Shown one piece after another: positions 1,719-20,162 of a stretch of DNA of 36,687 bases. Both the position numbers and the translations under genes were made by a program. The notes under the pieces were generated by a model. It searched no databases, was not told where the DNA came from, and saw nothing but the letters and a program-made list of their open reading frames with translations. Within the stretch, counting starts at the first letter, position 1. The number at the start of each line of letters is the position of its first letter. The DNA is from a bacterium (GTDB lineage Bacteria > UBA10199 > 2-02-FULL-44-16 > DYJF01). The DNA lies in NCBI GenBank assembly GCA_041739675.1, contig JBGSNL010000011.1, positions 1 through 36,687 of the forward strand, given 5' to 3'.

Positions 1719-1751
1719 TCTTTTCATGGCCGAACCTTACGGGAGGCCTGC

Positions 1752-3380
1752 ATGTACAAATATTTGATCGTCATCTGTTCAGTTCTGGTTCTTGCCGGTT
1801 GCGCAGGCGGGTCGTCCGTTCCGGCCGATCAGGAAATCGAGAATCCGTCCGTCGACGGTTCCCTTCTCGGAGGTGGAAGCGATGTTGATGATGGAGATGA
1901 TATAATCGACGCGGGATCCTCGGGCGGTTCATCCACGACTTATACCTCCACCGACGATGAGGATGACGCCGAGCTCGTGGTCAAAGTGTTGAAGAGAAAA
2001 TACGAGACGTCGCTTTTTGGCGCAATCGACATCAATCTCAGGGTGAAAGGCGGATCGGGTAACTACACTTGGGTTGCCGATTGGCTGCCGCCCGGACTTT
2101 CATTTCAGGATCAGGCCGGAAAAAATATCCATATAAAGGGGCAAGTAGGTGCAATAGGAACATTTTCAGGAATAGTGAAAGTTTGTGATGCCGAAACACC
2201 TACAAACTGCGGCGAAAAAGACGGATTTGAAATCGAGGTCAAAGATAATAGAAAAGATGTTTCGGAAACGCAGATTGCATTTCTTGGATGCCAACCCTTT
2301 GAGATTGTTCAGGTCGGAAATCCTGCCAACCCTTTGAAAGAAGACAGACCCAATGCATATGAGCCGCACAGGCCGAGCGCCGATCCGTTCACGGCGACGT
2401 TTGAAGCCAAAGGCGGAACCGGCCCGTTCAAATGGACATTCTCGGCCAGGACTGAGGAAGGGTCCGGAGCTATGGCAGTAGGGGCGGAATTCGTAAGCGC
2501 ATGGAACCCGACGCCGTCGTCTGATACGCGCCAACTGGTTGTCAGCAGCACGCTCGATAGATCCATTTTCACATGTGAAGATGAGGATGGGAATCCTGTA
2601 TTCTCGCCGGACGGGGCCGTGAAGTGCGAGGGCACAAAAAAATACACGGAAGAAATAACGGTGAAGGTAGAGGATCTCTCGTGTCTGGGTTTTGGGTCGG
2701 CGGAAAAGAAATACAATTTCGATCTTACTCCCACCGACAGGATGACAATGAAGAAATTGAAGATGGCAATCAAGGTGAATTTGGGTGACACGTGCGAAAC
2801 ATGCTCTTGCGAAGGCCCGCAGTGGATCAGACTTAGATTGTATGACAGCACCGAAAAATTTCCTCTCATATCTGCGGATTTCCAAAAAGAAAATTATAAT
2901 TATGGTTACGGATGGGGCGACGGTTGTCATATAGTGAAACTTCCACAGGAATATGACTCTACCTCCATTGAAGACGGGTGGCGTCCCAGATCATGGTCGT
3001 ATGATAAAATGGGAAGCCTCATCGAAGACGGGGCAGAAGACCTCGATGCGACAGAGGGCAGAATCTTTGAGTTGCATGCACACGATACAAACGGAGACGG
3101 TGCATGGATGGACGTCAATCTGGAGTGGGCGGTGATCTTCAACGATTTTTGGTATCTTGTGACTCCGGGAACGAATCTGGAAGTTCAGGACGACGAAGAA
3201 GTCGCAAGGCTTCTTGATCTCTCGAAAATTCCGGGTGGAGATTATCTGAACTGGCATAAATGTTCCGAGATCAATCAGGATCCCAACAGAGCGTGGCTCG
3301 TCGAAAGAGGCGTATGCAATTTAAGACCGATGGGTCAGTCGGAGTATGCCGGCATGGATCAATCCTGTGAGTCACACTAA
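1752..3380 (+). CDS. Cys-rich surface lipoprotein with putative Ig-like (He_PIG-type) domains
   Basis: Lipobox VLAGC; acidic Ser/Gly/Asp linker; Ig-like motifs GGSGNYTW..LPPGL and AKGGTGPFKW. Paralog of 3594-5486. Confidence 0.7.
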   Translation: MYKYLIVICSVLVLAGCAGGSSVPADQEIENPSVDGSLLGGGSDVDDGDDIIDAGSSGGSSTTYTSTDDEDDAELVVKVLKRKYETSLFGAIDINLRVKGGSGNYTWVADWLPPGLSFQDQAGKNIHIKGQVGAIGTFSGIVKVCDAETPTNCGEKDGFEIEVKDNRKDVSETQIAFLGCQPFEIVQVGNPANPLKEDRPNAYEPHRPSADPFTATFEAKGGTGPFKWTFSARTEEGSGAMAVGAEFVSAWNPTPSSDTRQLVVSSTLDRSIFTCEDEDGNPVFSPDGAVKCEGTKKYTEEITVKVEDLSCLGFGSAEKKYNFDLTPTDRMTMKKLKMAIKVNLGDTCETCSCEGPQWIRLRLYDSTEKFPLISADFQKENYNYGYGWGDGCHIVKLPQEYDSTSIEDGWRPRSWSYDKMGSLIEDGAEDLDATEGRIFELHAHDTNGDGAWMDVNLEWAVIFNDFWYLVTPGTNLEVQDDEEVARLLDLSKIPGGDYLNWHKCSEINQDPNRAWLVERGVCNLRPMGQSEYAGMDQSCESH

Positions 3381-3516: not shown

Positions 3517-3558
3517 TATCCATATGTTGAAAAGAAGCCTGTTTGGTACGCTTATTGC
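3517..3558 (+). promoter_or_regulatory. Sigma-54 promoter with upstream IHF-like site
   Basis: TGGTAC-N5-TTGC at 3544-3558. TATCCATATGTTG at 3517-3529 is one mismatch from the IHF consensus. GGAGG RBS precedes ATG 3594. Confidence 0.75.
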
Positions 3559-3593
3559 TTATAATCTATGTGAATCTTTATATTGGAGGTTTC

Positions 3594-5486
3594 ATGTATA
3601 AGCATCTGGTTATCCTTTTTTCGCTCGTGGCGCTCATTGGTTGCGCCGGCGGCGGGGCGGATATTAAACAGGACCCCGATCTGAGCAAGGATTGCACCAT
3701 TTTGGGCAACTGCGATGACGTTCCCGACACGACGGATACCGACACGGACGACGACGTGGACACGGACGCGGACGGCGACGGTTCGGACACAGTCAGGGCC
3801 GTGAAGATCACGAGGGGCGCACGTGACGGCGAGACCAAAGATTTCGTTCTATATGAAGATAGCGACCTGACATTCAGAGCGAGCTACGGTTCCGAAAGCT
3901 ATGTCTGGGAAATCACGAATCTCCCCGAAGGCCTGACGGCGATCGATCTGGACAAAAAGGTAGCCAAGATCGAAGGCAGGTTTACAAATTTTGACGAAAA
4001 AATAGTTAGCGTAAAGGTTTGCGATGCGGAAGATGCTGCCAACTGCGACGCTCGAAGCTTCAAGATCGTGGTGAAGGATAACATCTCTATAACCGCCCGC
4101 TTTCGATCTTCAGAAATTCATATGATAGGAGGAGGCCTTGTTTCAAGGGCCGATTTGGTCTCCGAAAGTGTGAAGGTTCTTCCGCCGTTTCCCTCCGATC
4201 CATGCAGCTATTTGAGAATCGAAGTGAAGGGTCATATGGGAGGCTATGCGCTGGAGACGTCCGATGAGGATGTAAAATTTGCAGAGCTACCCGCAGACGT
4301 CGGGACATGCGAAAGTCTTGTCAGGAAACATTTACCTGCTTTTGCCGGTTCATCGTCATCCACAATGCCTGTCATCAGCAAGACCTACTATTTGTATGTC
4401 GAGCCCGTCGCTTACGGTACTACCCACAGGAACGTCACCGTGACCGTGAAAGACTCCGCGGGAAACGAAGACAAGATAAAGTTCAGCTCGATTGTATTCG
4501 AGCAGGATCCCTGCTCGACACCACCTGTGATAACGCAGGTTTTCGATCCGGATCACGCAATGTTGGTTGAGGACGGCGACCGTGGCTTCAACGAACGCGA
4601 GCCGAACCATCTGAACACGTTCAAATTCCAGGCGTCGGGCGGTAAAGGGCCATATATATGGTCAGTCAACGGAAAAAAGATAGGCGACGCGTTGTCCGAA
4701 GACTTTGATTACCAGATGTCAGTCGAAACTGGCGATACGTTCGTGGTTTCGACATCGTTTGAGAACCTTGGCCAGATACTGTGCTATACCTATGGCAGCG
4801 ACCGCCCGACCACTTTGGCGTATCCATCTGAGAAAGCTTGCACTGGCGGAAGACTATATTCGCAATCCATGGCAATTGACGTTCAGGACTCCTGCCTTAC
4901 CGCGCAGCATGCGTCAAAGTCGTACAGCTTTCCTTTAAGGCCGTCAGCCAGTCAGTTTCTCTCAGGCTCCAAGATAAACATGGATGTAACTTTCGGCGAT
5001 ACCTGCGGGGACTCGGGATGGTGCGAATATAATGATTGGGGCGGATACATATATATCCAGGTGAGATTCTTTAATAAGGACAACAGGGTCATTGCACAGT
5101 TCGAGCAGGATCCTGTGGACGGTGGACATCACAGTTGGACACTTAATCCAGGCGCTACGGCCGGCTATGGGGATGTACCCGTAACGGAAATAGTCAGAGC
5201 AGAGTTTCACGGCCATGATACAAATATGGACTGCCAATCTCTCGACACAACGCTCCATTCGTTGGCCATCTGGGACAAAGACTCGTATCTTTTGTGGGAC
5301 ACGGTGCATGATCCATATTGGGAAACGAGTGGTGACGACAACTGGGAGAACATTTTCACCGCAGCTAATTTCACTGAAATCAGCAGGGCCACGGATAGAC
5401 ACGTTGAATGGAAAAAGTGCGATGATATCGCCGCCGATCCAAAGTTGGAAGTTCTGAGAGATTCCGGTGCCTGCGACATTGACTAA
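3594..5486 (+). CDS. Cys-rich surface lipoprotein with putative Ig-like domains (paralog of upstream gene)
   Basis: MYKHLVILFSLVALIGC lipobox after GGAGG; Asp-Thr repeat linker; motifs YVW..LPEGL, ASGGKGPYIW, GDTC and FHGHDTN are shared with 1752-3380. Confidence 0.7.
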   Translation: MYKHLVILFSLVALIGCAGGGADIKQDPDLSKDCTILGNCDDVPDTTDTDTDDDVDTDADGDGSDTVRAVKITRGARDGETKDFVLYEDSDLTFRASYGSESYVWEITNLPEGLTAIDLDKKVAKIEGRFTNFDEKIVSVKVCDAEDAANCDARSFKIVVKDNISITARFRSSEIHMIGGGLVSRADLVSESVKVLPPFPSDPCSYLRIEVKGHMGGYALETSDEDVKFAELPADVGTCESLVRKHLPAFAGSSSSTMPVISKTYYLYVEPVAYGTTHRNVTVTVKDSAGNEDKIKFSSIVFEQDPCSTPPVITQVFDPDHAMLVEDGDRGFNEREPNHLNTFKFQASGGKGPYIWSVNGKKIGDALSEDFDYQMSVETGDTFVVSTSFENLGQILCYTYGSDRPTTLAYPSEKACTGGRLYSQSMAIDVQDSCLTAQHASKSYSFPLRPSASQFLSGSKINMDVTFGDTCGDSGWCEYNDWGGYIYIQVRFFNKDNRVIAQFEQDPVDGGHHSWTLNPGATAGYGDVPVTEIVRAEFHGHDTNMDCQSLDTTLHSLAIWDKDSYLLWDTVHDPYWETSGDDNWENIFTAANFTEISRATDRHVEWKKCDDIAADPKLEVLRDSGACDID

Positions 5487-5506
5487 GAGAGCGGGTTTCA
5501 TGATAG

Positions 5507-5537
5507 GGCCCTCCGGAAATCCGGAGGGCCTTTTTTT
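5507..5537 (+). terminator. Rho-independent terminator
   Basis: GGCCCTCCGGA-AA-TCCGGAGGGCC followed by T7. Confidence 0.9.
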
Positions 5538-5543
5538 GGCAAG

Positions 5544-5572
5544 TTGACATAGGGCCTTCAAAAGGCTAATTT
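5544..5572 (+). promoter_or_regulatory. Sigma-70-type promoter
   Basis: TTGACA (5544-5549), 17-nt spacer, TAATTT (5567-5572); 9 nt before ATG 5582. Confidence 0.6.
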
Positions 5573-5581
5573 GGCGTCGAT

Positions 5582-6436
5582 ATGAAAAAAATCGCCGCCT
5601 TTTTTTTGTTTGTTTTCACAATTTTAGCGGGCACGTCGTTTGCCTTCCAGACGTCGGGTTTCACGAATCCGTACGGCGTTGTTGTCGATCAGAAAACCGG
5701 CCTCATCTATGTCGGAAACGTTAACGGCGGTGTAGACGACAAAGACGACAACGGTTTCATCTCGCGCCTCAAAACAGACGGGACAATCGATCTGATCAAA
5801 TTCATAGACGGTGCGTCGCCGGACATCATGCTGCATGCTCCGAAGGGGATGGCGATTCTGGGCAACTTTCTTTACGTTTGCGATCTGGACGCACTTCACA
5901 CGTACGACCTCACGACCGGCAAACAACTCTTTGACGTGAACTTTGGGACTCTTCCGCATCAGAGTTTTTACGCTATCACTATCGGGCCCGACGGCGCGCT
6001 CTATCTTGCCGATGCAGGCATGAACGTGATTTACCGAATCGACGTGGCCAAACAGCATGAGGTCACGGCGTTCGCCGCCGGCGAAGATTTTGGCTCGCCT
6101 CATGGAATGGCGTGGTATCCAGCACGGCAGGTCTTTGTCGTTTCCGGAAACGCGTCAGGCCAGATCACGGCCTACGACAGATCGGGAAAGCGCCAGCAGA
6201 CGCCGGGGATCTTTGTTAAAACCCTTGAAGGCATGGACGTAGACGACACCGGAAATCTTTACGTCGCGAGCCGCGATTTGGGTTCCGTCTATCGCATGTC
6301 GCCGACGTTTGCTATCAACGGATATCAGGTGGGCCTGCAATCTCCCGTCGGTGTGGGTTTGAACCGCGCAACGAAAGAGATGATCGTCACTTCATTTTCA
6401 GGAAATACCGTTCAGTCATATCCGACAGTCAAATGA
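5582..6436 (+). CDS. Secreted beta-propeller protein (SMP-30/gluconolactonase/NHL-like)
   Basis: Signal peptide; repeated blades (PYGVVVD, PKGMAI, GPDGALYLAD, PHGMAW, EGMDVDDTGNLYVA). Confidence 0.75.
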   Translation: MKKIAAFFLFVFTILAGTSFAFQTSGFTNPYGVVVDQKTGLIYVGNVNGGVDDKDDNGFISRLKTDGTIDLIKFIDGASPDIMLHAPKGMAILGNFLYVCDLDALHTYDLTTGKQLFDVNFGTLPHQSFYAITIGPDGALYLADAGMNVIYRIDVAKQHEVTAFAAGEDFGSPHGMAWYPARQVFVVSGNASGQITAYDRSGKRQQTPGIFVKTLEGMDVDDTGNLYVASRDLGSVYRMSPTFAINGYQVGLQSPVGVGLNRATKEMIVTSFSGNTVQSYPTVK

Positions 6437-6900: not shown

Positions 6901-8987
6901 AAGAGTTTTTTTATCCTAAGACAATCGCCGTGATCGGCGTTTCCGAATCGCCCGACAACATGGGCAGAAACATCGTCGCCAATCTCATCGAGTTCAACTA
7001 CGACGGCATCATCTACGAAGTGGGATACAAGGGCGGCACGCTCTTCGGCAGAAGGATCTACCGCTCCGTTTCCGACATACCCGATCAGATAGATCTCGCG
7101 GTGATACTGACACCGGCGAAGACCGTTCCCGATATACTCAAAGAGTGCGGCGGGAAGGGCGTCAGGTGCGTCATCATCGAATCGGCCGGCTTCAGGGAGT
7201 TCGGCCCCGACGGCAAAAAGACGGAAGACGAACTTTTAAAAGTCGCGCGTCAATACGACATAAAATTCATCGGCCCCAACTGCATAGGCGTGATGAATCT
7301 CCACAACGGCCTGGCGCTCTCCTTCACCAGCTTCAAAAACGTCTTTCGCAAGGGTGGCATTTCGCTTGTGACGCAGAGCGGTGGCGTGGGTATCAGTTAC
7401 TTAAATGTTTTGGCGAGCGAAAATCTGGGAATCGCGAAGTTTGCAAGCATAGGCAACAAACTTGTCATCAACGAAAACGATCTGCTCTCTTATTTCATAG
7501 ACGATCCGGAGACGGAGATCGTCTGCCTTTATCTTGAAGGGATAAGCGACGGCCGCCGCCTGATGGAGATAGCAAGAAAATCTTCAAAACCTATCCTGCT
7601 GCACAAATCGAATATAGGAAAAGAGGCGAAGGCGATCGCAAAGTCCCACACGGCCTCTCTTTCAAGCGACGACGCGGTGGTTTCCGCGGCGCTGAAACAG
7701 GCCGGCATCGCGCGTTTCAAGGATCACGAAACGCTCGTCAATTATCTGAAGATACTGCCGCTGCCCCGCCTCACGGGAAACAGGCTCGCGATTCTGTCGC
7801 GTTCGGGCGGCCATGCGGTGATCGCCGCCGATGCGTGCGAAGAGGCCGGCTTCACGCTGGCGCCTTTCGACGCCGCGTTCATCAAAGATGTGGAGCAGCA
7901 TTTCCGCGCGCACGTCATCTCTCTCACGAACCCCCTGGATCTGGGCGATCTCTTCGATTACGAACTCTACATAAGAATTGTGGAACAGACGATTACGCAG
8001 CCTAATGTCGACGGACTCGTCTTTCTGCACACGTATTTTTCCGCAACGGAGGGGGAGGCCTCGCGCGCCCTTTTCGCCGAGCTTGAAAAGATATCCTATA
8101 CGTACAAAAAGCCTATCGCGATATGCGTCGCCACCGACGAGGAAGAGCTCTATCGTCTGAGGCAGAAACTCCCGCAGCCGGTCTTCACATCGCCCTCTGA
8201 TGCGATCTACGCGCTGGCGCTTGCGCGCGATTTCCGCCACGAGATGCGCCCTGCTCCGGCTAATATGTCGAAGATTTCCGTCGAGAAGGATAAGGCTGAA
8301 AAAATCATCAATGCGTGTGTGAAAGACGGGCGCAGCCCGCTTCTGGGCGAGGCGCTCGATATCCTTTCCGCCTATGGCATTCCGGTCGTCAAAAGCGTTC
8401 TTGTCGAAAAAGAAGACGAGGCTGCAGAAGAGGCCAAAAAACTCGGCTACCCCGTTGCGATGAAAATTGTCTCCCCCACCATTTCTCACAAGACCGATCT
8501 GGGGGGTGTGCAACTCAACATAAGAAACGAGGATGCGCTCCGGCAGTCGTTTTCAGAAATGATGGCGAATATCAAGAAGCGCGTGCCGGGCGCCGCGATC
8601 GAAGGGGTCATTGTGCAGCCCATGATCTCCGGCGGCCGCGAACTCATCATCGGCGCCAAGAGGGACCCGAATTTCGGCCCGACCGTCATGGTTGGGTTGG
8701 GCGGTATCTTCGTCGAGATTTTTCGCGACACCGCGCTTCGCGTCGTTCCCTTCGACGAAAAAGAGACCGATCAGATGTTCGCGGAACTCAGAGGTTATCC
8801 TATTCTCACGGGTGCGCGCGGCGAAAAAGGCTACGATCTCGCCAAGGCCAAGGATGTTGTTGCCCGGCTGAGCCTTCTCATCAGCAATTTTCCGCAGATA
8901 TCCGAGGTGGATCTAAATCCCTTCCGAGTGCTTCCGGAGGGGGAGGGCGGTTTTTGTCTCGACGCGCGAATGGTTTTTTCCAAGTAA
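6897..8987 (+). CDS. Acetate/acyl-CoA ligase (NDP-forming), fused alpha/beta
   Basis: CoA-binding N-terminus (IAVIGVS), GPNCIG, QSGG, phospho-His SHTASL, NPLDL, ATP-grasp C-terminus (HKTDLGGV, DPNFGP, DLNP). Confidence 0.88.
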   Translation: MKEFFYPKTIAVIGVSESPDNMGRNIVANLIEFNYDGIIYEVGYKGGTLFGRRIYRSVSDIPDQIDLAVILTPAKTVPDILKECGGKGVRCVIIESAGFREFGPDGKKTEDELLKVARQYDIKFIGPNCIGVMNLHNGLALSFTSFKNVFRKGGISLVTQSGGVGISYLNVLASENLGIAKFASIGNKLVINENDLLSYFIDDPETEIVCLYLEGISDGRRLMEIARKSSKPILLHKSNIGKEAKAIAKSHTASLSSDDAVVSAALKQAGIARFKDHETLVNYLKILPLPRLTGNRLAILSRSGGHAVIAADACEEAGFTLAPFDAAFIKDVEQHFRAHVISLTNPLDLGDLFDYELYIRIVEQTITQPNVDGLVFLHTYFSATEGEASRALFAELEKISYTYKKPIAICVATDEEELYRLRQKLPQPVFTSPSDAIYALALARDFRHEMRPAPANMSKISVEKDKAEKIINACVKDGRSPLLGEALDILSAYGIPVVKSVLVEKEDEAAEEAKKLGYPVAMKIVSPTISHKTDLGGVQLNIRNEDALRQSFSEMMANIKKRVPGAAIEGVIVQPMISGGRELIIGAKRDPNFGPTVMVGLGGIFVEIFRDTALRVVPFDEKETDQMFAELRGYPILTGARGEKGYDLAKAKDVVARLSLLISNFPQISEVDLNPFRVLPEGEGGFCLDARMVFSK

Positions 8988-9057
8988 TTTCAAAGACTTA
9001 AAACCTAGCAACTTTTTTGAAAAACCTGCGATAAAAGTGCCGAAAGGGTGTCTTAAG

Positions 9058-10260
9058 ATGGCTTATTACAGCCTCAGGCATGCAGACGAAACTGCGCACG
9101 CGGTTCAAACCTACCTCAGCGGTCAGTCGCGTTTGAGCGAGCCGCCAAGGGACTATGTCATTAAATTGGCTCAGAAGTATGAAGAGGTGTGCCGCGATAA
9201 CATAGGAGCGCAATCGGGTACGGACGGCCACGTAATGATTGGAGATCGAGAGGCCGAGAGCAGACTGGTGCGGACCCTGCAATCGTTTCTGCCGTTTCAA
9301 TTTTTCATGTCCTCCGATGCGCTCGCCTCGTCATTCGGTTCCCATCTGAACGGCGGCGAAAAATGTCCGGACGGCACGCCGGCCAACACGGCATATATCA
9401 ATGCCCGGATGGGGTCGATTCTGATCCCTGGATATCAGCATGAACTCGATATCCTCACTTTTGCCGTTTCTTCACGCACGACCTCGGACAGCGCAGAAGA
9501 ACGCACTAATGTCGAATGGGGAGATATTTTTGATGAGATGGTGAAAGAGGAGGGACTTTCATCTCAAAATCTCAATTCCGATCCGCAACTTCTAAAAAAT
9601 GTGAAAGAGATCATGGAAAAAGTGGTCGCCGGACTGAATGGACGAATATTCACGGGCGAGGAACTGTTGACGTATCAGCTGCTTCTCAATGTGATCCAGG
9701 ATCACGCGCGGCAGCGCACCGGCTACAAACTCTTGAGCCTGATCGAGATGAAAAACGGCGGGCCCGTCTTGCCGGTAGGCCTGAAGGATCTGATCTATGC
9801 GGCGGACGGCGCAGAGGTCCCGCCTTTACTCGAATCGATATTCAAGATGATCTCTGCAATAGACGACGTTCCCGGCGATCTTGTAAGGACGCTTTTAAAA
9901 AGAAGTTCGGTGCAACCTTTGGGCGCGGCGCGCCGATTCATTATAGAAAAGGCGACCGCACTTCTTGCGGAATCAAAAATCGAGCTTGCCGAGAAGCTCG
10001 GCAGATTGCTGGACGATCCCACGGAGCTTCAGTACATGGATGCGGCCCGGAGCGGGCCGGAATATTGGAAACAACTCATTGTTCGAAAGAAGGCATCCGG
10101 CGGCGGCGCGGGCGGCCAGTATCCATACCGTTATATGCATTGGCCACGGTATGCCGGATCCGCATGGCGGCGATTCAACGCCTGGCCTAACATTACGCGG
10201 CAGCATCCGGTGTGGATGTCGGGAGCGCGGACCATGAGGGGTGTTTTTACAGCATGGTAG
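9058..10260 (+). CDS. Hypothetical helical protein (paralog of 10277-12007)
   Basis: Long ORF with no recognisable family; shares several motifs with the next gene. An alternative GTG start lies at 9037. Confidence 0.7.
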   Translation: MAYYSLRHADETAHAVQTYLSGQSRLSEPPRDYVIKLAQKYEEVCRDNIGAQSGTDGHVMIGDREAESRLVRTLQSFLPFQFFMSSDALASSFGSHLNGGEKCPDGTPANTAYINARMGSILIPGYQHELDILTFAVSSRTTSDSAEERTNVEWGDIFDEMVKEEGLSSQNLNSDPQLLKNVKEIMEKVVAGLNGRIFTGEELLTYQLLLNVIQDHARQRTGYKLLSLIEMKNGGPVLPVGLKDLIYAADGAEVPPLLESIFKMISAIDDVPGDLVRTLLKRSSVQPLGAARRFIIEKATALLAESKIELAEKLGRLLDDPTELQYMDAARSGPEYWKQLIVRKKASGGGAGGQYPYRYMHWPRYAGSAWRRFNAWPNITRQHPVWMSGARTMRGVFTAW

Positions 10261-10276
10261 AGGGTGAATAAAAGAT

Positions 10277-12007
10277 ATGCCGGCATACGATTCGATCAAC
10301 AATCTTCTTGCCTCTTTGCAGATACCTCATACTGCGACGCAGGTTCATGACATAGACACAAGGCTTCTGGGCAAATACGAGATGATTTGCCAGGAGAGCA
10401 TAAGCACCGTTGACGGCGCCAATGATCGCTATACAGGAACGGTCGACAGGTTTCTTACGAAGGAAAGCAGCTTGCTTCAAAATGCAAGATGGGTGGGTAC
10501 GGATCTCATCGTCGATCTTTTCGCGAACTCCCTCAACGGTGGAAAGGGCTGCCCGCCAGGATCTCCGCCAGAAGTGAGGTCGTCGCTCAGACACGATTTC
10601 AGCAGCCTGGGCCTCGTCATGGAATTTCAGTCCCGAATGGGCGCGGCCAGACATTCGGATGTCGCTCTAGCGCAATATTATCATATATCGTCCGTGCAGG
10701 CTCACAGTGTCGCGAAAAAGCTCGATGACGGTTTTTTTGTGAGCAGAAATGAAATTGAAGCGCTGAAAATCATAAGAGACCTCTCTTACGATACTCATCG
10801 GTCATCTGTGGGTTCGCGGCTTATGAACATGATCTCATGGGGCGATCTTGGGCAGCCTCTTTATCCCGCGGGATTCGGCGAACTGGTCGTGGGAGTGAGA
10901 GAGCATATCGGAGACATCGGGGACTGGAGGTATTTTCTGAAATTCATTCTCGGAAAACTCTCCAGAGGCACGGAAATCGAGGCGGTCGACTGGCAATGGG
11001 AGACCGCCGTCATCGTGAAGGTGAACGAAACCGTGACCGGAACGAAGGATGAGAAAACAATTCAAAAGACGCCGTTAATCAGGTCGCTTGTAGCGTTGCT
11101 CGACGCCGGCCTGCATAAACTGACGGCGGAGTTTCTCCGGATGATCGATGCCTGGGAATGGGACGCCGATCCTACAATCAACGTCCTTCTTCACATCGCA
11201 GCCTCGCAACCTCTTGATGCGGTACGGAAAGAGCTTGTTGGAACGGCCATTGGCATGATTGACGGAGACTCCTTTTTCGAGGGAGGGGAATTTCGGCTTC
11301 CGAGCAGAATAGCGGCTTTTCTTGTATATCCGCAAGTTAGCGAGGAGATCGAAGTGGGGCTTTCCAGGTTTTTGACGAAGGTGCTGGAAGATTCGAAAAA
11401 AGGCGACTTTCTGGGCGAAGATCAGGGGATCGATCTTGCGCTTGCGTTTGTTGAATCGCTGAGAAAATTGTACGCATCGCTCGCGGTTCATAACGTGCCC
11501 CACGAATGGAAGAATCTTGTATCCGAGTCGATCGCTTTCCGTCTTCTGGAAAATGCGCTCGGACGGGAGCTGAACAGGGCCTCGATAGGGCTTTTCCGCA
11601 TGGCTCTTGAAAAAGCCTCCGGGCTCTATTGGGACGAGATGGGAGATGCTGAACAGTATATAGCTCCGCTCATCGATCCGCTTGAAAGAGAATTTCTGGA
11701 TGCGACGACACTTGAGTGGGAAGATTATCTGGACGATTACAATAGACGGCACCGGAAGGGCGGAGGCGGCACAGGCGGATTGGGCGGCACGGTTAGCGGG
11801 ATGGTAGATCCGGAAGACACGGGAGAAATTAGCGGAGGCCTATTCTCGGCTCACTATTCCGCGCAATTGTATTATCAAAATCCCCGTGTGAACTCCAGGC
11901 AACGGACGCAAACTTTAAGGCAGCGCTCCCGCTCTCCGTCGATTGTGAACAGCATGAGAATTTTTTATGGAGTTCCCGCCAACGCCCGGAATGTTCTTTT
12001 CCACTGA
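10277..12007 (+). CDS. Hypothetical helical protein (paralog of 9058-10260)
   Basis: 576-aa ORF with LNGG..CP.G.P, QPL.A.R and DP.E....DA motifs and a Gly-rich linker before a basic tail. Confidence 0.7.
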   Translation: MPAYDSINNLLASLQIPHTATQVHDIDTRLLGKYEMICQESISTVDGANDRYTGTVDRFLTKESSLLQNARWVGTDLIVDLFANSLNGGKGCPPGSPPEVRSSLRHDFSSLGLVMEFQSRMGAARHSDVALAQYYHISSVQAHSVAKKLDDGFFVSRNEIEALKIIRDLSYDTHRSSVGSRLMNMISWGDLGQPLYPAGFGELVVGVREHIGDIGDWRYFLKFILGKLSRGTEIEAVDWQWETAVIVKVNETVTGTKDEKTIQKTPLIRSLVALLDAGLHKLTAEFLRMIDAWEWDADPTINVLLHIAASQPLDAVRKELVGTAIGMIDGDSFFEGGEFRLPSRIAAFLVYPQVSEEIEVGLSRFLTKVLEDSKKGDFLGEDQGIDLALAFVESLRKLYASLAVHNVPHEWKNLVSESIAFRLLENALGRELNRASIGLFRMALEKASGLYWDEMGDAEQYIAPLIDPLEREFLDATTLEWEDYLDDYNRRHRKGGGGTGGLGGTVSGMVDPEDTGEISGGLFSAHYSAQLYYQNPRVNSRQRTQTLRQRSRSPSIVNSMRIFYGVPANARNVLFH

Positions 12008-12033
12008 CGACTACCAAAAAGTACCCATGAAAT

Positions 12034-12059
12034 AAAAAAAGACCCTTTTGGGTCTTTTT
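12034..12059. terminator. Bidirectional intrinsic terminator
   Basis: AAAAAGACCC-TTTT-GGGTCTTTTT lies between convergent transcription units. Confidence 0.75.
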
Positions 12060-12063
12060 CTTT

Positions 12064-12290
12064 TGGCGGAGAGGGCGGGATTGCTCGCGCACTCAATGCA
12101 AGCAGGACCTGGCGGGATTCTCCGCGCTCGCGCGCGGAGCGTCGTAAGGAAAGTGCCTTGCCACCACCCTTCGACTCACTCCGCTCGCTCAGGGCGGTGC
12201 CGGCTCGGCACATATCACAGATGCGGAGCTCGGCTTCGCCTCACTCCGCTTGCGTCGTCGAACCCGCGCGGGTTCTCAGCCACCACGTCA
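12064..12290 (-). repeat. tRNA-linked repeat: copy of the tRNA-Ser(GGA) 3' end split in the T-loop by a 176-bp structured insert
   Basis: 12064-12082 is identical to 12328-12346 and 12258-12268 is identical to 12346-12356. The intervening sequence carries several GC-rich hairpins. Confidence 0.8.
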
Positions 12291-12291
12291 T

Positions 12292-12322
12292 AAAAAGAAA
12301 AGGGGTCATGAAGACCCCCTTT
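12292..12322 (-). terminator. Rho-independent terminator after tRNA-Ser(GGA)
   Basis: Minus strand reads GGGGTC-TTCAT-GACCCC-TTTTCTTTTT. Confidence 0.75.
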
Positions 12323-12326
12323 ATTT

Positions 12327-12417
<91 letters not shown>

Positions 12418-12541
12418 AAAACGCCGATTTGGGCGCAATACTTAGCCATAAGTGACCTCAATGTCGAGGGCGAAATTGAGCGAATATTTTCGTTGCTGGC
12501 CGCCTCCAAAAGAATATATAAAGCCATACTTTGTGGAAATC

Positions 12542-12630
12542 GGAGAGGTGGCTGAGCGGCCGAAAGCGGCAGACTCGAAATCTGTTGTCCGCCTTTTGGT
12601 GGACCGTGGGTTCGAATCCCACCCTCTCCG
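12542..12630 (+). tRNA. tRNA-Ser (anticodon CGA), CCA not encoded
   Basis: GGAGAGG...CCTCTCC-G acceptor, GCAGA-CTCGAAA-TCTGT anticodon arm, long variable arm, GGTTCGAATCC; followed by CAT-ATG. Confidence 0.95.
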
Positions 12631-12633
12631 CAT

Positions 12634-14268
12634 ATGAGCTACCAAGTAATCGCCAGGAAATACAGGCCCCAGCGTTTTGATGAGGTCGTGGGACAGGAGC
12701 ACATCACCAAGACCTTGAAAAACGCCATCGATTCCAAGCGCGTCCATCATGCGTATCTGTTCACCGGCGCGCGCGGTATAGGTAAGACCACGGTTGCGCG
12801 AATTTTGGCCAAGGCGCTCAATTGCGAGAAGGGGCCGGTGGCTGAGCCCTGCGGAAAGTGCCCGGCGTGCATGGAAATCACATCCGGCTCGTCGCTCGAC
12901 GTTCAGGAAATCGACGGCGCGTCCAACACTGGCGTGGACGACGTCCGCGAGATCAGGGACCGCACGAAATACATGCCGGCGGGCGGACGCTACAAAATAT
13001 ATATAATAGATGAAGTCCACATGCTCTCCACGGCGGCGTTCAACGCGCTTTTGAAGACGCTTGAGGAGCCGCCGCCGCACGTCATCTTCATCTTTGCGAC
13101 CACCGAATCGCATAAGATCCCCGCAACTATTCTTTCGCGCTGCCAGCGCTACGATTTCAGGCGGATCCCGGTTTCAAAGATTTCAGAAACGCTTTCGAAG
13201 ATCGCCGCCGACGAAGGGATCACGATAGACAATGAATCGCTTTCGCTCATCGCCCACGAGGCGACGGGCTCCATGCGCGACGCCCAGTCGCTTCTGGATC
13301 AGGCGATAGCTTTTTCGGGAAATAAAGTGGGCACGGCGGAGATCAAGGCGATGTTGGGTTTTCTGGACCGCAAGATGCTCTTCGATCTTCTTGAAGCGGT
13401 CTTTGCAAAGGACACGAAAAAAGCCCTTTCGCTTTTGGGTGAAGTCTTTGAAATGGGCGCGGATCTTTCCAGATTCGCTATGGATTTTCTTGCGTGTCTG
13501 CGTCATGTCATGGTGATCAAAGAATGCGGGTTCGAGAAAAATCTTTTGGATCTGCCGCAGGATGAGGCCGACATTTTGAACCGTCTCGCTTCAGGGGCCG
13601 AATCGACGGAGATCAATCAGATGTTTCAGATCTGGTATCAGGCGGCGGACGGTATTTCAAAGTCGCCGTTTCCCAAGATGCTTCTGGAGGTCCTTCTCAT
13701 GAGGCTTGCGCGCGTGGAACCGGTGAGGCCCATTGCGGAGCTGATTGAGGAGATCGAAGCTCTGGCCAAGGGGTGCGAGTCACGAGATCAGAAGCCAGAA
13801 GTCAGAAGTCAGAATACAGAAGCCAGAAGCCAGAAGCCGGAAGAAGGCGCGAATTGGGACGGCTTCATGAAATGGCTCACGGTGAACCGGCCGCAGATCG
13901 CTTCGATATTCCAGCACGGAACCCTGGGTGCTCTCTCAAACGACGTTGTTGAAGTCAATTTTGATAGCCCGTTTTACGCTGACATGCTTCTTGAGGCGGA
14001 CAGAAAAACGCAGATCGAAGAGCTCATGAAGACATTTTTCAAGAAGAAGATGCGGCTCGATGTCAGAAAAGTGGAAGCCGTGAAGGCGGCCAATGACAAG
14101 GCGCCGGGGAAAGAGGCGCTGCCCGCCCAATCGGCCGGCAAGGCGGCCGTGCAGGAGAGAAAGAAGGCCCTGACAAAAGAGGCGCTTGAAACGGAGATCG
14201 TGAAAGAGGCGGCGGAGATATTAAACGCCAGAATCCACGACGTTCGCGTCGGCGAAGACGAAAAATAA
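12634..14268 (+). CDS. dnaX: DNA polymerase III subunit gamma/tau
   Basis: [13 protein letters not shown], Walker A GARGIGKT, zinc module (C..PCGKCPAC), EIDGASN, DEVH, SRC. Confidence 0.97.
13789..13844 (+). repeat. Imperfect 7-bp tandem repeat (CAGAAGY) inside dnaX
   Basis: CAGAAGC CAGAAGT CAGAAGT CAGAATA CAGAAGC CAGAAGC CAGAAGC CGGAAGA. Confidence 0.9.
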
Positions 14269-15344: not shown

Positions 15345-16886
15345 ATGAAACTTCTTCTCATAGTTCCGCAGAAGAACAAGCGCGAGCGGGAGTTTTTCGA
15401 TTTCCGCTTCACCGCATCGTTCATAGGGATGCGCCGGGGTTTCTGGGGAGTTCCTCTGGCCATTCCGACCGTTGCCGCTCTCACTCCCCCAGATGTCGAT
15501 ATCAAAATAGTCGATGAAAACGTGGAGCCCGTGCCGTACGACTTCGACGCCGATCTTGTGGGCATAACGGTGATGACGCTTCAGGCGGCAAGTGCCTACA
15601 GGATCGCCGACGAATTCAGAAGGCGCGGCAAGAAAGTTATCCTGGGCGGCGTTCATGTCTCCATGCTCCCCGACGAGGCTTCGCTCCACGCCGATGCGGT
15701 TTTCATAGGCGAAGCGGAGCTGCGCTGGCAGGAGGTCATTGAGGACCTGAAAAGGGGAGAGCTCAAACAATTTTATCGCCCTTTGTCTGATGCGCCGCGG
15801 CCGGATATGGCGACGTCACCTGTTCCCCGCCGGGATCTTCTGAAGAACGACGCGTATGTCGCAAATCTCATGCAGACGTCGCGCGGTTGCCCCTTCGACT
15901 GCGATTTCTGCTCGGTTCAGGATTTTCTGGGCTCCAAGATGCGCTACAAAACTGCCGCGCAGGTGAAAGATGAAATAAAAAATATCTACAATGTTGCCGT
16001 TCACGACAATTACGTGAAGCAGCTTTTCATAACCGACGACAATCTTGTCGGTAATCGCGCCCGCATCCGCGAACTTTTGACCGAAGCGCTGATCCCCATG
16101 AATCGCGAGCATAATATCCGCGGCTGGACATGCCAGTGCTCGGTCAATGTCGCGAACGACGAGGAGATTCTGGCGCTGATGAGGGCCGCCGGCTGTCAGC
16201 ACATCTTCATCGGTTTTGAAACGGTTTCGAAGCGAAACCTCGTTCACCTAGGAAAAAACATCAACAAGGCGGCGAACTACAGTGAGGCGATAAAAAAGAT
16301 CAGAGCTCATGGGATAGACGTCATAGCGTCCTTCATCCTTGGAAACGACGGCGACGACACGTCATCTTTCAAAGAGCTCATTGATTTCATCGACGACAAC
16401 GCACTTCTCGATAACCTCATCAATATTCTGGTCCCGTTCCCCGGCACGAAACTCTTCAGACGCTTTGAGGCGGAAGGGCGCATTCTACACTATGACTGGA
16501 GCAAATACGATCTTGGACACGTCGTCTTCAGACCCAAGCTCATGACCCCGCGCGATCTGGAAGAGGGCTACGTTTTTGTGCACGAAGAAGTATATAAACT
16601 TGGAAGACTGCACAAGAAGCTCAGGCACCACATCTGGAAGCCGGGCAAAAATTCCCTTTCAACAAAGTTCAGGCTGAAATTCACGGCGCGAATGCTTTCA
16701 TATTTGTCGCTCACGGACTGGGACAGGACGTCGTTCATCTTCCGCACGATTCCCGATATCTTCAACTCCAATCTCGACATGCAGGTCTCGAACATCGTGA
16801 ACTGCATGGACCATCAGGATTTTGCAAGGCGCTTGAGAAAGCAGCGCGGCCTTCGCGCGAAGGAGCTCAAGAACCATTGGGCCTGA
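15345..16886 (+). CDS. B12-binding domain radical SAM protein
   Basis: Cobalamin-binding N-terminus (DLVGIT, VILGGVH, IGEAE), SRGCPFDCDFC, DDN, GFE, PFPGT. ATG at 15345 follows the upstream stop. Confidence 0.9.
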   Translation: MKLLLIVPQKNKREREFFDFRFTASFIGMRRGFWGVPLAIPTVAALTPPDVDIKIVDENVEPVPYDFDADLVGITVMTLQAASAYRIADEFRRRGKKVILGGVHVSMLPDEASLHADAVFIGEAELRWQEVIEDLKRGELKQFYRPLSDAPRPDMATSPVPRRDLLKNDAYVANLMQTSRGCPFDCDFCSVQDFLGSKMRYKTAAQVKDEIKNIYNVAVHDNYVKQLFITDDNLVGNRARIRELLTEALIPMNREHNIRGWTCQCSVNVANDEEILALMRAAGCQHIFIGFETVSKRNLVHLGKNINKAANYSEAIKKIRAHGIDVIASFILGNDGDDTSSFKELIDFIDDNALLDNLINILVPFPGTKLFRRFEAEGRILHYDWSKYDLGHVVFRPKLMTPRDLEEGYVFVHEEVYKLGRLHKKLRHHIWKPGKNSLSTKFRLKFTARMLSYLSLTDWDRTSFIFRTIPDIFNSNLDMQVSNIVNCMDHQDFARRLRKQRGLRAKELKNHWA

Positions 16887-17676
16887 AAAGCTCCGCCTTG
16901 AAGAGATGTATTTGCCCCTCGTTTTTTCGCTTTGTCTTTGTAAGAAGCTGGCCCAGCTCGTAATGGCATTCGGCAAACGTTGGTTTCAATTCAAGCGCGG
17001 CCTCGTAAGTCCTGATCGCCTCATCGGTTCTTCCCTCCTCTTCCATGACCTTGGCCATCACGAAACGCGCATCCGCAGACTGGGGATTTAAGCGGATGAT
17101 CTCGGCGATTTTTTTCTTTCTCTTGTGTATATTCTCTTCGCTGTTCAGCCTCATTAGGCCCTTTTCGGCAAGGACCTCCTCTATTATCTGTTTCAACTCG
17201 GGCTCGTCAGTATCGGCAGGTCCGGACTCGCTTTCAAGAGAGAGCATGACCTTCGCCGCGGAAAAGGCGCGCGCATGATCGGGGTTGAGCGAGATGAATT
17301 CGTCAAAATGTTTGAGCGCGCCTTTTTTGTCGCCGGTTTTGAAAGCAAGTATCATCGCAAGATTGTAATGGGCCTTGCTGTTGTTTTCATCATATTTCAA
17401 AAGCGTTTCGTAATCTTCGACGGCTTTATTGTAATGCTCAAGCTTCTGGTAGGCCAGCGCGCGCAGATATCTCGCCTCGCTGTTTTTGGGATCCATCTCG
17501 ATGAGCATTGTGAGGTCCGTAACGGCCTTCGGAGCGCTCCCGTGCAGAACGGAGGAACGGTTCTGGGCGATGTCATCGTCGAAGATATTTTTAAATTTGC
17601 CGCCGCCGGTGGTGGCACAACCCGAGACGGCAACGGCCGCAAAAATAAAACACAACGTTGTTCGTTTCAAAAACAT
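16867..17676 (-). CDS. TPR-repeat lipoprotein
   Basis: Lipobox VSGC; several TPR units (DPKNSEARYLRALAY, AHYNLA, AECHYELG). Confidence 0.85.
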   Translation of the reverse strand: MFLKRTTLCFIFAAVAVSGCATTGGGKFKNIFDDDIAQNRSSVLHGSAPKAVTDLTMLIEMDPKNSEARYLRALAYQKLEHYNKAVEDYETLLKYDENNSKAHYNLAMILAFKTGDKKGALKHFDEFISLNPDHARAFSAAKVMLSLESESGPADTDEPELKQIIEEVLAEKGLMRLNSEENIHKRKKKIAEIIRLNPQSADARFVMAKVMEEEGRTDEAIRTYEAALELKPTFAECHYELGQLLTKTKRKNEGQIHLFKAELFRPNGS

Positions 17677-17686
17677 TTCGGATCCC

Positions 17687-18700
17687 TTATTCCATCAAGG
17701 TGTAGCCTGTTTCATATGACTCCGCCGGAACACTCTCGCGCATTCTGGACTCTGCAAAGCGGACGATGTCGCCGACCTTTGGTTTGAACGCGCCCATTAT
17801 TTTCGCCTTCGTGTATTTCCTGTCCACGTAAACGGCCTCGGCCGAGCCCAGATCGCTCTCGACCAGACCTATCACCTGATTTGTCTCCGGATCTGTTAAA
17901 ACTTTTTTGACTGAACTTAGGCGGAACCTGTCGCCCTGAGCTATGGCATCCGCGCTTCCGGCATTGAAATAGACGATTCCGCCGTCCACTTCTATTACGC
18001 GGCCGAGCCATGTGTATTCTTCTGTCTGCTTGTCGATCACGCTCAAGATGAAGCCCACCGCATCTTCGATCGTGTTGCGCGTGGCCTTACCCAGAGGCGT
18101 CTTGTGAAACGCGTCGCCGCCGAACTCCATCACCTTGTAGTCGAATTTCACGCCGCCCGCTTTCTCCCAAGCCCTCCCTTGTGAATAATGCGAATGGAGA
18201 ATTTCGCCGGTTCTTGTATCGACGACGCGCATGTCGATACCTACCTGCGCGGCGTTGATCTCGCCGCCGAACTTCACTCCGAAGAGTTTCGCGCCCATGC
18301 CAGCGCCGATCTGGCGCTCCTCGAATTCGGTGACCTCTCCCACTATCATATAGTCCACGCCCAGAAGATGACCGGCCGGCATTCTCGTCATGGGTGTCAG
18401 AAGTCTTGATTCACCAAGCTCCTGTTCGATCAGGACCTTTGACAGGATCGCGCGTTCGACCACCACGACCCGCTCGGTTTTTATGAGCGCCGTCACGAGC
18501 TGGGCCGCGAGCCCGCCACCGATGTTCCATCCGCCGTAAACGGAGGCGAAGCGGTCAGTCGTTCCGAAGTTTGCCACCGCCACGCGCATCTTGGGGCCCT
18601 GCTTTGAAAGATTGCTAAGAGGCCCCTCCGCGAAAACATTTCCGGACCAGACAAGCGCTGCGATTACCGCAATCAATATGTGTGTCGCAAAATATCTCAT
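17687..18700 (-). CDS. CsgG/HfaB-family protein with FlgT-like C-terminal domain
   Basis: RVAVANF, LVTAL....VVVER..L..V..EQEL, GVDYMIVGEVTEF, DMRVVDTRTGEI. C-terminal GRVIEVDG..VYFNAG....GDRF...DPET. Sec signal peptide without a lipobox Cys. Confidence 0.85.
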   Translation of the reverse strand: MRYFATHILIAVIAALVWSGNVFAEGPLSNLSKQGPKMRVAVANFGTTDRFASVYGGWNIGGGLAAQLVTALIKTERVVVVERAILSKVLIEQELGESRLLTPMTRMPAGHLLGVDYMIVGEVTEFEERQIGAGMGAKLFGVKFGGEINAAQVGIDMRVVDTRTGEILHSHYSQGRAWEKAGGVKFDYKVMEFGGDAFHKTPLGKATRNTIEDAVGFILSVIDKQTEEYTWLGRVIEVDGGIVYFNAGSADAIAQGDRFRLSSVKKVLTDPETNQVIGLVESDLGSAEAVYVDRKYTKAKIMGAFKPKVGDIVRFAESRMRESVPAESYETGYTLME

Positions 18701-18704
18701 TTTC

Positions 18705-19067
18705 TTAGAGGCAGCCTCTGTCTCTGCCTTCTCTCACGATGTTCACGTTGACGTCGGAATTTATCGTCCCGTTATTGCTGTTGGCGTTGACCTCGCCGTG
18801 TCCCGCGTTGACCGTGACGTTCCCGTTGTTCTGATTTCCCGAACCCATCCCCACGTCGCCTATGCGCTGTCTCACCTGCTGCACCGGCGAACAGTGCGGC
18901 TCTTCGGGCGAGCTCCTGAAGACCTGCGCCCGAAGGACTATCGTCTCTTCGTCCTGCTGTTTGATTCGCATCCGGTGAAGGTTATCAAGGATGACCGATT
19001 CGTCGTCGGCGGACGCATAGCCCGCGAGCGAGAATACAATTATAATGATGAAGACAAGTCTTCTCAT
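18705..19067 (-). CDS. Small secreted Asn/Gly/Val-rich protein (putative minor fibre subunit)
   Basis: Signal peptide ending ASA; C-terminal GNQNNGNVTVNAGHGEVNANSNNGTINSDVNVNIV; ATGA overlap with the upstream gene. Confidence 0.7.
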   Translation of the reverse strand: MRRLVFIIIIVFSLAGYASADDESVILDNLHRMRIKQQDEETIVLRAQVFRSSPEEPHCSPVQQVRQRIGDVGMGSGNQNNGNVTVNAGHGEVNANSNNGTINSDVNVNIVREGRDRGCL

Positions 19068-19411
19068 TTGCTCATATCTCCAAGGATGATGGTCGAATTG
19101 ATAGACGCGTCGATCGTATTGTTGTTCGAGTTCGAATCCGTTCTGATATCGACCCTCTCATGGCCGATTCTCACGTTCATGTCGCCGGCGACACCGTTTT
19201 TCATGTCACCGATTGTGGGGCTTCTCTCCCTGATCGTCGTATTGTTGTATGCCGGACCCAGAAGCGATCTGTTGTCAAAGGATACCGAAGAAGCCTTGGG
19301 CATCTGCGCCGTGCAATCCTTGAGACAGATCGCGTCGGAGAGCGTCGGCGAAAAAAAGAGAAGGGAAGAGAGAATGATCTGTGCCACTTTCATCTGAATT
19401 TGCCTTAACAT
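19064..19411 (-). CDS. Small secreted Asn/Ser-rich protein (putative minor subunit or nucleator)
   Basis: GGAGG RBS before ATG 19411; signal peptide ending SDA; N-terminal CxxxC; C-terminus homologous to both neighbours. Confidence 0.7.
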   Translation of the reverse strand: MLRQIQMKVAQIILSSLLFFSPTLSDAICLKDCTAQMPKASSVSFDNRSLLGPAYNNTTIRERSPTIGDMKNGVAGDMNVRIGHERVDIRTDSNSNNNTIDASINSTIILGDMSK

Positions 19412-19436
19412 TTGAACCTCCCTCAAAAATTTCAAC

Positions 19437-19467
19437 CCCCGGGCGGTAAGGGGGGCACCGCCCGGGG
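19437..19467 (-). promoter_or_regulatory. Intercistronic GC-rich stem-loop
   Basis: CCCCGGGCGGT / ACCGCCCGGGG perfect 11-bp stem just after the first gene of the operon; no immediate U-tract. Confidence 0.65.
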
Positions 19468-19478
19468 ATCGAGATTGA

Positions 19479-19970
19479 CTACTTTGCCAGTGTGTCGCCC
19501 AGAGTTGTGATGTTGACCGATGATGTGTCGATCGTGTTTGAGCTTCCGGTGACGCCGCTCCTGAAATCGGTTCCGCTGTAGAGCTGGTTGAAGTCGCCCA
19601 TCACGGAGTTTCTGACCTCTCCGCCGACGGTCGTGCCCCGGTTGTAGCTTCCGTTGACCGAGTTGTTCGACTTGTCGGCGTAATCATTCATGCTGTCCAA
19701 AAGGTTATGGCTGTTTGCCACAGAGTGATCGTCGTTGAAGCTGCCCGAAGCGTGGACCGATTCATCCTTCCTGTTGTCATAGCGCTGGTTGTACGCATTT
19801 GTATATGTGTTGCGCATGTATGTGCCGCGTTCGCCGACGTTCGTGCTGCTGTCATTATGGCTGTTCGTGTTCACGTTTGCCGTCGTGTCGATGAGCCACG
19901 CATCGGAAGTTGCGACCGACCCCAGGATCACTGCGCACACCGCCATTGCTACGAATAAAGACCTATTCAT
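19479..19970 (-). CDS. Secreted Asn/Ser/Asp-rich repeat protein (putative major amyloid-like subunit)
   Basis: GGAGG RBS; signal peptide ending SDA; seven [NGD]-[SAD]-[HYFM]-N motifs; no Pro or Cys in the mature part. Confidence 0.7.
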   Translation of the reverse strand: MNRSLFVAMAVCAVILGSVATSDAWLIDTTANVNTNSHNDSSTNVGERGTYMRNTYTNAYNQRYDNRKDESVHASGSFNDDHSVANSHNLLDSMNDYADKSNNSVNGSYNRGTTVGGEVRNSVMGDFNQLYSGTDFRSGVTGSSNTIDTSSVNITTLGDTLAK

Positions 19971-20050
19971 ATCATCCTCCTTGCCTGCCTACGTTTTGGT
20001 GGCGGGCTTGTTATTTTTTGTTTACGTCAGCTGACTGCGCTGACTTCTTA

Positions 20051-20067
20051 AGCAAGGGCTGTGCCAG
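20051..20067 (-). promoter_or_regulatory. Sigma-54 promoter
   Basis: Minus strand CTGGCAC-AGCCC-TTGCT, a full -24/-12 consensus about 80 nt upstream of ATG 19970. Confidence 0.85.
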
Positions 20068-20125
20068 ATTGTGCTTTTTGTTTTGAGGTTTTTAACGAAA
20101 ATAATAAGGGGGCAGCGAAAACAGC

Positions 20126-20162
20126 TGCATGATTTTCGTGCACACTGCACGGTTTTGATGCA
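20126..20162. promoter_or_regulatory. Tandem 17-bp TGCA-N9-TGCA sites (putative NtrC-family enhancer)
   Basis: TGCATGATTTTCGTGCA (20126-20142) and TGCACGGTTTTGATGCA (20146-20162), 60-95 bp upstream of the -24 box. Confidence 0.6.

Follow-up and report, generated by a model that had tools for sequence, protein, structure and literature searches.

A conserved five-gene operon with a CsgG-family protein, a lipoprotein and three small secreted-looking proteins: a candidate fibre secretion system distinct from curli

A contig of 36,687 nucleotides from a bacterium of the GTDB lineage UBA10199 (GenBank assembly GCA_041739675.1, contig JBGSNL010000011.1; the whole stretch is called the window below) carries on its minus strand a compact operon of five genes, named here A, B, C, G and T. 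The first three encode small secreted-looking proteins, G encodes a member of the CsgG family, and T a tetratricopeptide repeat (TPR) lipoprotein. As judged from gene content and order, the operon is real and is conserved across two bacterial groups, which include the manganese-oxidising Manganitrophaceae. It is a variant of the CsgG-type secretion theme that has not been described before, with candidate cargo of a novel kind, and fibre formation is a plausible proposal by analogy. The fuller reading is the most likely of those considered, though evenly balanced overall: the five genes would build a pore of CsgG type, through which their own small beta-rich products would leave to form a surface fibre other than curli, Hfa and Fap. 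To our knowledge, CsgG-family pores with known cargo are those of curli and the Caulobacter Hfa anchor only, and most CsgG-domain genes are unexplained. The clade of this operon brings its own candidate cargo, adaptor and anchor, and hence makes the cargo of non-curli CsgG pores directly testable.

Conservation of the operon

The five open reading frames (ORFs) follow each other in the order A, B, C, G, T, and their positions agree with the list of ORFs. The start of B was taken at the ATG behind the GAGGGAGG site; the ORF list instead begins B at a TTG at 19435. Genes B and C overlap by 4 nt, and the gaps are 4 nt between C and G, 10 nt between G and T, and 67 nt between A and B. The initial annotation of this DNA, which proposed a non-canonical fibre secretion operon of curli or holdfast-anchor type, was right about this tight packing.

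G was matched in 19 of 61 related genomes, closely in 11 of them, and a twelfth close match is a fragment at a contig end. Among the 20 regions compared, A, B and C lie upstream of G in this order at all 12 close loci and at none of the 8 distant CsgG-like loci, and T follows G at each of the 11 close loci with downstream sequence. A profile of C matches 16 of the 93 genomes of the window's phylum; among the first 61 genomes, the carriers of C are exactly the 12 with a close G. The small genes, whose absence beside the CsgG-like gene elsewhere had been named as evidence against the operon, do accompany it in fixed order.

Wider scans with the G alignment gave 45 loci from genomes and 79 from metagenomes (drawn from the best 80 of 133), in part on the same contigs as those of the related genomes; a single-sequence scan of the genome contigs found no match, but the scan with the G alignment did find loci. 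Clustering at 97% produced 108 groups. C is present in the locus of 42 of the 43 groups with at least 48% identity in G and 400 nt of upstream sequence, as against 2 of 57 more distant groups, both at 47% identity, the line of 48% between close and distant G having been drawn after seeing the data. The single close group without C (L079) is a short match at a contig end. T follows G in 30 of 30 close groups with enough sequence, compared with 1 of 35 distant ones.

A quick tree was built from 53 of these loci, E. coli CsgG and the window; in it, the 30 rows of G linked to C form one side of a branch with a Shimodaira-Hasegawa-like approximate likelihood-ratio test (SH-aLRT) value of 100. This side splits into a Nitrospirota group and a group holding the window, and records near the window carry the depositor labels Deltaproteobacteria, Bdellovibrio or Pseudomonadota metagenome-assembled genomes. 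Around Ca. Manganitrophus (L047), C occurs in 8 of 9 genomes of the family (Manganitrophaceae) and in 17 of the 37 genomes of the order, and a sample of 300 other genomes of the phylum had no C; an operon member is likewise found in record P0242, with the source name Ca. Manganitrophus sp. SB1. Since relatives are non-independent samples, all these counts show a conserved unit and not many separate origins.

Several loci depart from the common layout. Two genomes hold two divergent copies of the operon each (G055 with L022 and L023, and G120 with L166 and L167), and L022 has a second A-like gene at 5231-5947. At L168 (2932-4242), G is split in two ORFs and T is shortened, which represents either a decayed operon or an assembly error. 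About 0.6-1.5 kb of extra sequence lies between C and G at L095-L097 and L019. FHA genes stand between G and T at L022, L041 and L051, and the Nitrospirota operon at L047 has an extension (7052-12960) with genes for a TPR-trypsin lipoprotein, a Ser/Thr kinase-PEGA protein, an AhpC-TPR-CsgG-FlgT_C protein and a CsgG-TPR protein.

The CsgG-family protein and its lipoprotein partner

Gene G (17687-18700, minus strand) encodes 337 amino acids. Its assignment to the CsgG family in the initial annotation is supported by Pfam CsgG (PF03783), which matches residues 33-226 with 113 bits; the NCBIfam CsgG equivalog scores 35 bits against a cut-off of 505, and the HfaB equivalog model 27 bits against a cut-off of 300. 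The G profile aligns with E. coli CsgG (hhalign 96.9%) over residues 63-219, covering both barrel hairpins, of which hairpin 1 has no net gap and hairpin 2 is about 5 residues shorter in the window protein. The alternating hydrophobicity of both hairpins is kept in 100 homologues. G has no cysteine at all and is therefore not a lipoprotein; a lipobox-like string occurs in 7 of 93 homologues, with no conserved cysteine column.

The AlphaFold model of G, with a predicted local distance difference test (pLDDT) score of 76.5 and less certain hairpin tips, adds a small C-terminal beta-barrel at residues 231-316 that resembles the C-terminal domains of FlgT and TsaP. The top structural match is FlgT (3w1e) over model residues 31-319 (Foldseek E 5e-15; VIA Z 14.8, root-mean-square deviation 8.7, 243 aligned), and the C-terminal tail matches TsaP (E 2e-8). 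Thus, the FlgT_M and FlgT_C folds are present in G and the FlgT N-terminal domain is absent. Neither FlgH nor flagellin was found in the 94.6% complete genome (controls positive), which makes a flagellar role of G unlikely. A predicted complex of three G chains with C scored 0.29 against a mark of 0.32, the controls not having been folded, and was counted neither way.

From its sequence, G is likely an outer-membrane pore. Two CsgG-family systems with small secreted partners have been characterised, and the proteins exported by both are amyloid-like, according to the available parts of the sources (PMC12822426; PMC6707917; 10.1101/2022.07.20.500906); by this analogy G is quite probably the export pore for the A, B and C proteins.

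Gene T (16867-17676, minus strand; 269 amino acids) has TPRs and a lipobox at Cys20, as the earlier call of a TPR lipoprotein implied, and a lipobox-like cysteine is seen in 41 of 41 T homologues of a redundant set. Because T keeps its lipobox while G is devoid of a lipid anchor, T is likely a pilotin-like anchor or assembly factor for G.

The small secreted-looking proteins

Genes A (19479-19970; 163 amino acids), B (19064-19411; 115 amino acids) and C (18705-19067; 120 amino acids), all on the minus strand, begin with signal peptides that were called by eye from the sequence and alignments. The initial annotation described three Sec-secreted proteins rich in Asn, Ser, Asp and Gly; this bias is clear in A (N 13.5%, S 13.5%, T 10%, D 9%, G 8%) and weaker in B and C, the N-terminal half of C being charged. 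They have no credible match in Pfam, NCBIfam or PHROG and no similarity to E. coli CsgA, CsgB, CsgE or CsgF, and the C profile against E. coli CsgF and CsgE gave a probability below 1%, so that they belong to no described family in these collections or the curli profiles. Sequence searches of the PDB with the B and C profiles gave nothing below E 0.09, and ESM Atlas searches with A and B gave only unnamed clusters below 0.9.

Common to the three proteins is a C-terminal Asn/Gly/Val/Ile module of about 50 residues, built of short Val/Ile-alternating segments that are interrupted by Gly-Asp, Gly-His and Asn-Asn turns. Its homology among A, B and C reaches 96.7% and 94.2% in hhalign (C against B, 94%). 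Likewise, a B-module profile scores at least 10 bits in 6 of 13 A and 36 of 81 C sequences, a level that no shuffled or reversed sequence reaches. On these alignments, A, B and C are paralogues by way of the C-terminal module, beyond effects of composition. The module may resemble triple beta-helices.

Outside the module the proteins differ. The A family (141-231 amino acids in the aligned set; N+S+G+D+T 57%, Pro 0.6%) has a length-variable middle rich in N, S, D, T and R, with short imperfect repeats such as NSHN, DNR and DSYN. These presumably resemble Asp/Ser/Asn-rich secreted proteins of other bacteria, for which PHROGs gave no match. Self-identity of A is in excess at lags 4, 6, 12 and 18, with z-scores inflated by related sequences, and mature A has a cysteine in none of 13 sequences. 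The length variation is like that of CsgA in curli, where CsgA is length-variable as against a fixed CsgB (PMC3521004, in its available part). In 51 of 52 aligned rows, B has CxxxC or CxxxxC immediately behind the cleavage site, and the B family is small, with 49 matches among 1.84 billion representatives. Two of these (P0232 and P0234) are long unrelated repeat proteins matched by composition only, and were rejected. C, the most constant neighbour of G, has a conserved, charged N-terminal half and two invariant cysteines flanking its module; E41, C59, G100 and C119 are invariant in 81 rows. In Nitrospirota, the places of A and B are taken by a tandem array of two or three CxxxC proteins that are nearly identical, with hairpins behind most of them, and conserved cysteine pairs are found in B, C and the Nitrospirota copies alike. 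The pattern G-x4-N-x3-G-x6-N, which we take to be the Fap repeat, occurs in 4 of 81 C sequences and in none of the A, B and Nitrospirota sequences.

One major and two minor subunits had been predicted. The major subunit is retained, A being the likely candidate given the hairpin behind its gene and the tandem first gene in relatives, and B is a likely minor subunit or nucleator. C would fit an adaptor coupled to the pore better than a plain minor subunit.

Promoter and hairpin

An exact sigma-54 -24/-12 motif (TGGCAC-N5-TTGCT) lies at 20051-20066 on the minus strand, about 80 nt 5' of A, in agreement with the sigma-54 promoter first assigned to the operon. The window has 2 matches to this consensus against 0.01 expected, the 1.9 Mb genome has 19, and the same genome encodes rpoN. 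Of 35 related loci, 19 have the strict motif within 200 nt upstream of their first small gene, as against 0.4% of 6,564 random windows. A sigma-70 scan gave 8 weak sites, none upstream of A.

The gap between A and B holds a hairpin (19432-19472, minus strand) with a GC-rich RNA stem of 17 bp and a T-rich tail (-33.9 kcal/mol, z -5.7). A hairpin of z -2.5 or lower follows the first small gene in 24 of the 27 related loci with a gap, compared with 1 of 27 for the coding control. It is likely a partial terminator or mRNA stabiliser that favours A, and a strong hairpin 3' of the first small gene is as expected if this gene encodes the major subunit. The hairpin, the paralogy of A, B and C, and the extra C-terminal domain and missing cysteines of G are all additions to the initial annotation.

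At L163, contigs from RNA libraries span the operon, X1 and X3 without differences over 3,759 nt and X5, X9 and X10 piecewise; some pieces end at 4510-4550, adjoining a sigma-54 motif at 4549-4563, and depth figures over the tandem small genes exceed those over G and T. As contigs do not reveal transcription, start sites or the ranking of genes, this was taken as a weak hint that is not counted as evidence. The shares of X6-X8 at this locus are mostly conserved domains of other organisms and were set aside.

Proposed mechanism and alternative explanations

Gene content, order and motifs are read from the sequence; export, binding and polymerisation are proposed by analogy with curli and Hfa. 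A sigma-54 activator would switch the operon on, the A-B hairpin would make A the abundant product, and all five proteins would cross the inner membrane by Sec. T, as the sole lipoprotein, may bring or hold the non-lipidated G at the outer membrane in the way of a pilotin. G would oligomerise into a beta-barrel that exports A, B and perhaps C, with its FlgT-C-like domain giving an extra periplasmic ring. C, translationally coupled to G, may sit at the pore and seed assembly through its module, thereby taking the role of CsgF and CsgB. B would nucleate or cap the fibre, and A would extend it, its variable middle adding cross-beta rungs or a polar surface, while the cysteine pairs of B and C would form stabilising disulfides. 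If G exports A, B and C, long fibres are, by the same analogy, a fairly likely product.

Several observations weigh against this mechanism. Pfam CsgG is unspecific, as 171 of 601 matches were curli in the available part of PMC3521004, and for the Acinetobacter CsgG cluster the part of 10.1101/2021.05.19.444899 at hand gives no known amyloid. By structure, G is closest to FlgT, which belongs to a ring of the flagellar basal body, and CsgG is second. No regular curlin-like repeat is present, at least two QxGxxN motifs being found in none of 175 small proteins, as the initial annotation had noted for the three of the window. The AlphaFold2 model of the B monomer (52 sequences; pLDDT 61, predicted template modelling score 0.23) has no beta strands and hence does not support a self-contained beta-solenoid; a strandless model fits a chain that folds only on oligomerising, and equally a failed prediction. 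Fold searches with this low-confidence model (Foldseek, 0 matches; best VIA Z 2.3) are uninformative. The Nitrospirota tandem proteins score on the B module in 0 of 29 cases and match B over the signal peptide and CxxxC alone, so that a fibre fold common to both groups is unsupported. Moreover, 8 of 35 loci have no gap for the hairpin and 16 of 35 no sigma-54 motif, and the FHA, kinase, trypsin-TPR and hairpin-less CsgG-domain genes that join the operon in some lineages are unexplained by a fibre.

Some of these points suit an explanation in which G is a periplasmic FlgT/TsaP-like support ring of another envelope machine, such as a pilus, a secretin or a kinase-linked signalling complex, and A, B and C are periplasmic proteins that are never exported. 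The FlgT middle and C-terminal architecture of G, the TsaP match of its tail, its lack of a lipid anchor, and the FHA, Ser/Thr kinase and TPR-CsgG-FlgT_C genes of some lineages would all be accommodated. This is nevertheless unlikely, considering that FlgH and flagellin are missing from the genome, that G keeps both transmembrane-type hairpins near CsgG length with alternating polarity, and that a non-exhaustive scan recognised no pilus or secretin gene among the neighbours viewed.

The small proteins may also leave the cell without making long fibres. In one such scheme, G exports them as a short anchor for a polysaccharide or surface layer, like HfaA/D/E; HfaB, the other homologue of CsgG to have been characterised, exports a number of unrelated amyloid-like anchors in the parts of the literature available, and in the window the stretch upstream of the operon holds glmS, a gene for a sugar transferase and a cluster of glycosyltransferase genes. 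These polysaccharide genes have no match at any compared locus (flanks of about 5-7 kb) except glmS in the closest relatives, the HfaA and HfaD models (NF037934 and NF037936; HfaE was not modelled) match nothing in the genome with a positive Caulobacter control, the HfaB model falls far below its cut-off, and the hairpin and tandem copies suggest bulk production. An anchor is accordingly rather improbable; the small proteins are not HfaA, as had been suspected, and nothing points specifically to the holdfast-anchor character once proposed. More improbable again would be soluble, disulfide-bonded signals or effectors, which might for example act on prey or be sensed through the FHA and kinase proteins linked to the operon. 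The invariant cysteine pairs of B, C and the Nitrospirota copies, the kinase, protease and FHA genes of extended operons, and the quite different large secreted proteins adjoining distant G relatives are in keeping with such a role; the cysteine-free mature A with its low-complexity, length-variable body, the want of a recognisable conserved catalytic motif, and the window's operon without kinase and FHA genes speak against it.

If the fibre reading holds, biomaterials and nanopore research would have an interest in a self-assembling fibre of a new kind and in a CsgG-type pore that is non-lipidated by nature. Enrichment cultures of Ca. Manganitrophus form manganese-oxide nodules (PMC9040806), and the words 'CsgG', 'curli' and 'amyloid' are absent from the main text of that paper, as far as it was available. 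A bolder and doubtful proposal is that the operon stands alongside curli and Fap as a third class of functional amyloid secreted by Gram-negative bacteria. Its non-curlin subunits would be capped by disulfides and fold only when they stack, and they would leave through a CsgG-FlgT hybrid pore that is free of lipid and placed by a TPR pilotin. Being near-universal in Manganitrophaceae, such a system could provide the protein scaffold of their manganese-oxide nodules.

Surrounding genes and distant CsgG-like loci

Elsewhere in the window, a second exact sigma-54 motif (1704-1719, plus strand) precedes lipoprotein-like ORFs at 1752-3380 and 3543-5486, of 542 and 647 amino acids, with acidic linkers and no Pfam match. 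The adjoining ORFs at 9037-10260 and 10277-12007 (plus strand; 407 and 576 amino acids) are loosely alike by eye, and the larger has no Pfam match.

Genes of other types accompany distant G relatives. For example, a secreted-looking gene product of about 180-250 amino acids precedes G at L062, L066, L139, L145, L146, L156 and L157, with no Pfam match in three tested. Very large secreted-looking ORFs (about 950-1,990 amino acids) adjoin it at L073, L076, L078, L135, L136, L146 and L157, and these are possibly other cargo classes of the same pore family. In Phycisphaeraceae (L067, L071, L074, L075 and L080), two secreted-looking ORFs of 450-740 amino acids, rich in N, D, G and T, lie downstream of the distant G.

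Comparison with known systems

No description of this operon was found in the literature searched, which comprised main texts, with supplements and subscription journals outside the coverage. The operon shares with curli (type VIII secretion) a CsgG-family domain with both barrel hairpins and a set of small secreted paralogues rich in Asn, Gly and Ser, of which one varies in length and one is fixed, without a partner enzyme. It differs in having neither the curlin repeat X6QXGX2NX10 (as given in the available part of PMC3521004) nor CsgE and CsgF, in a G that is not a lipoprotein as CsgG is and has an extra FlgT-C-like domain, and in its TPR lipoprotein partner, cysteine pairs and sigma-54 motif. 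Curlin PF07012 was not found in the genome itself or in 5 genomes of the Manganitrophaceae family (E. coli control positive), and CsgE and CsgF models gave nothing in the former, which is 94.6% complete (controls positive), in accordance with the initial annotation.

Like the Caulobacter HfaA/HfaB/HfaD/HfaE system, the operon encodes a CsgG homologue with small secreted non-curlin proteins; unlike it, G is not a lipoprotein, as HfaB is in the parts of the sources available, and no conserved polysaccharide linkage was found. The Acinetobacter-type cluster of csgG and two lipoproteins likewise combines a CsgG homologue and lipoprotein partners without curlin, but has no small secreted Asn-rich genes and has other partners (10.1101/2021.05.19.444899, available part). 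The Pseudomonas Fap system (FapA-F) is likewise a single operon, and its Asn-rich secreted paralogues comprise major and minor forms, with length variation in the major one. However, the pore here is of CsgG type and not FapF, and no layout of three Fap repeats of about 39 residues was recognised. FapF and the FapD C39 peptidase have no match among the five ORFs, no C39 domain exceeds the cut-off in the genome, and A, B and C match no Fap family in Pfam or NCBIfam. Finally, Vibrio FlgT of the H-ring and the C-terminal domain of TsaP share with G a non-lipidated CsgG-like middle domain that is followed by the same small beta-barrel, whereas G, unlike FlgT, keeps amphipathic hairpins of CsgG length and is encoded together with secreted low-complexity proteins.

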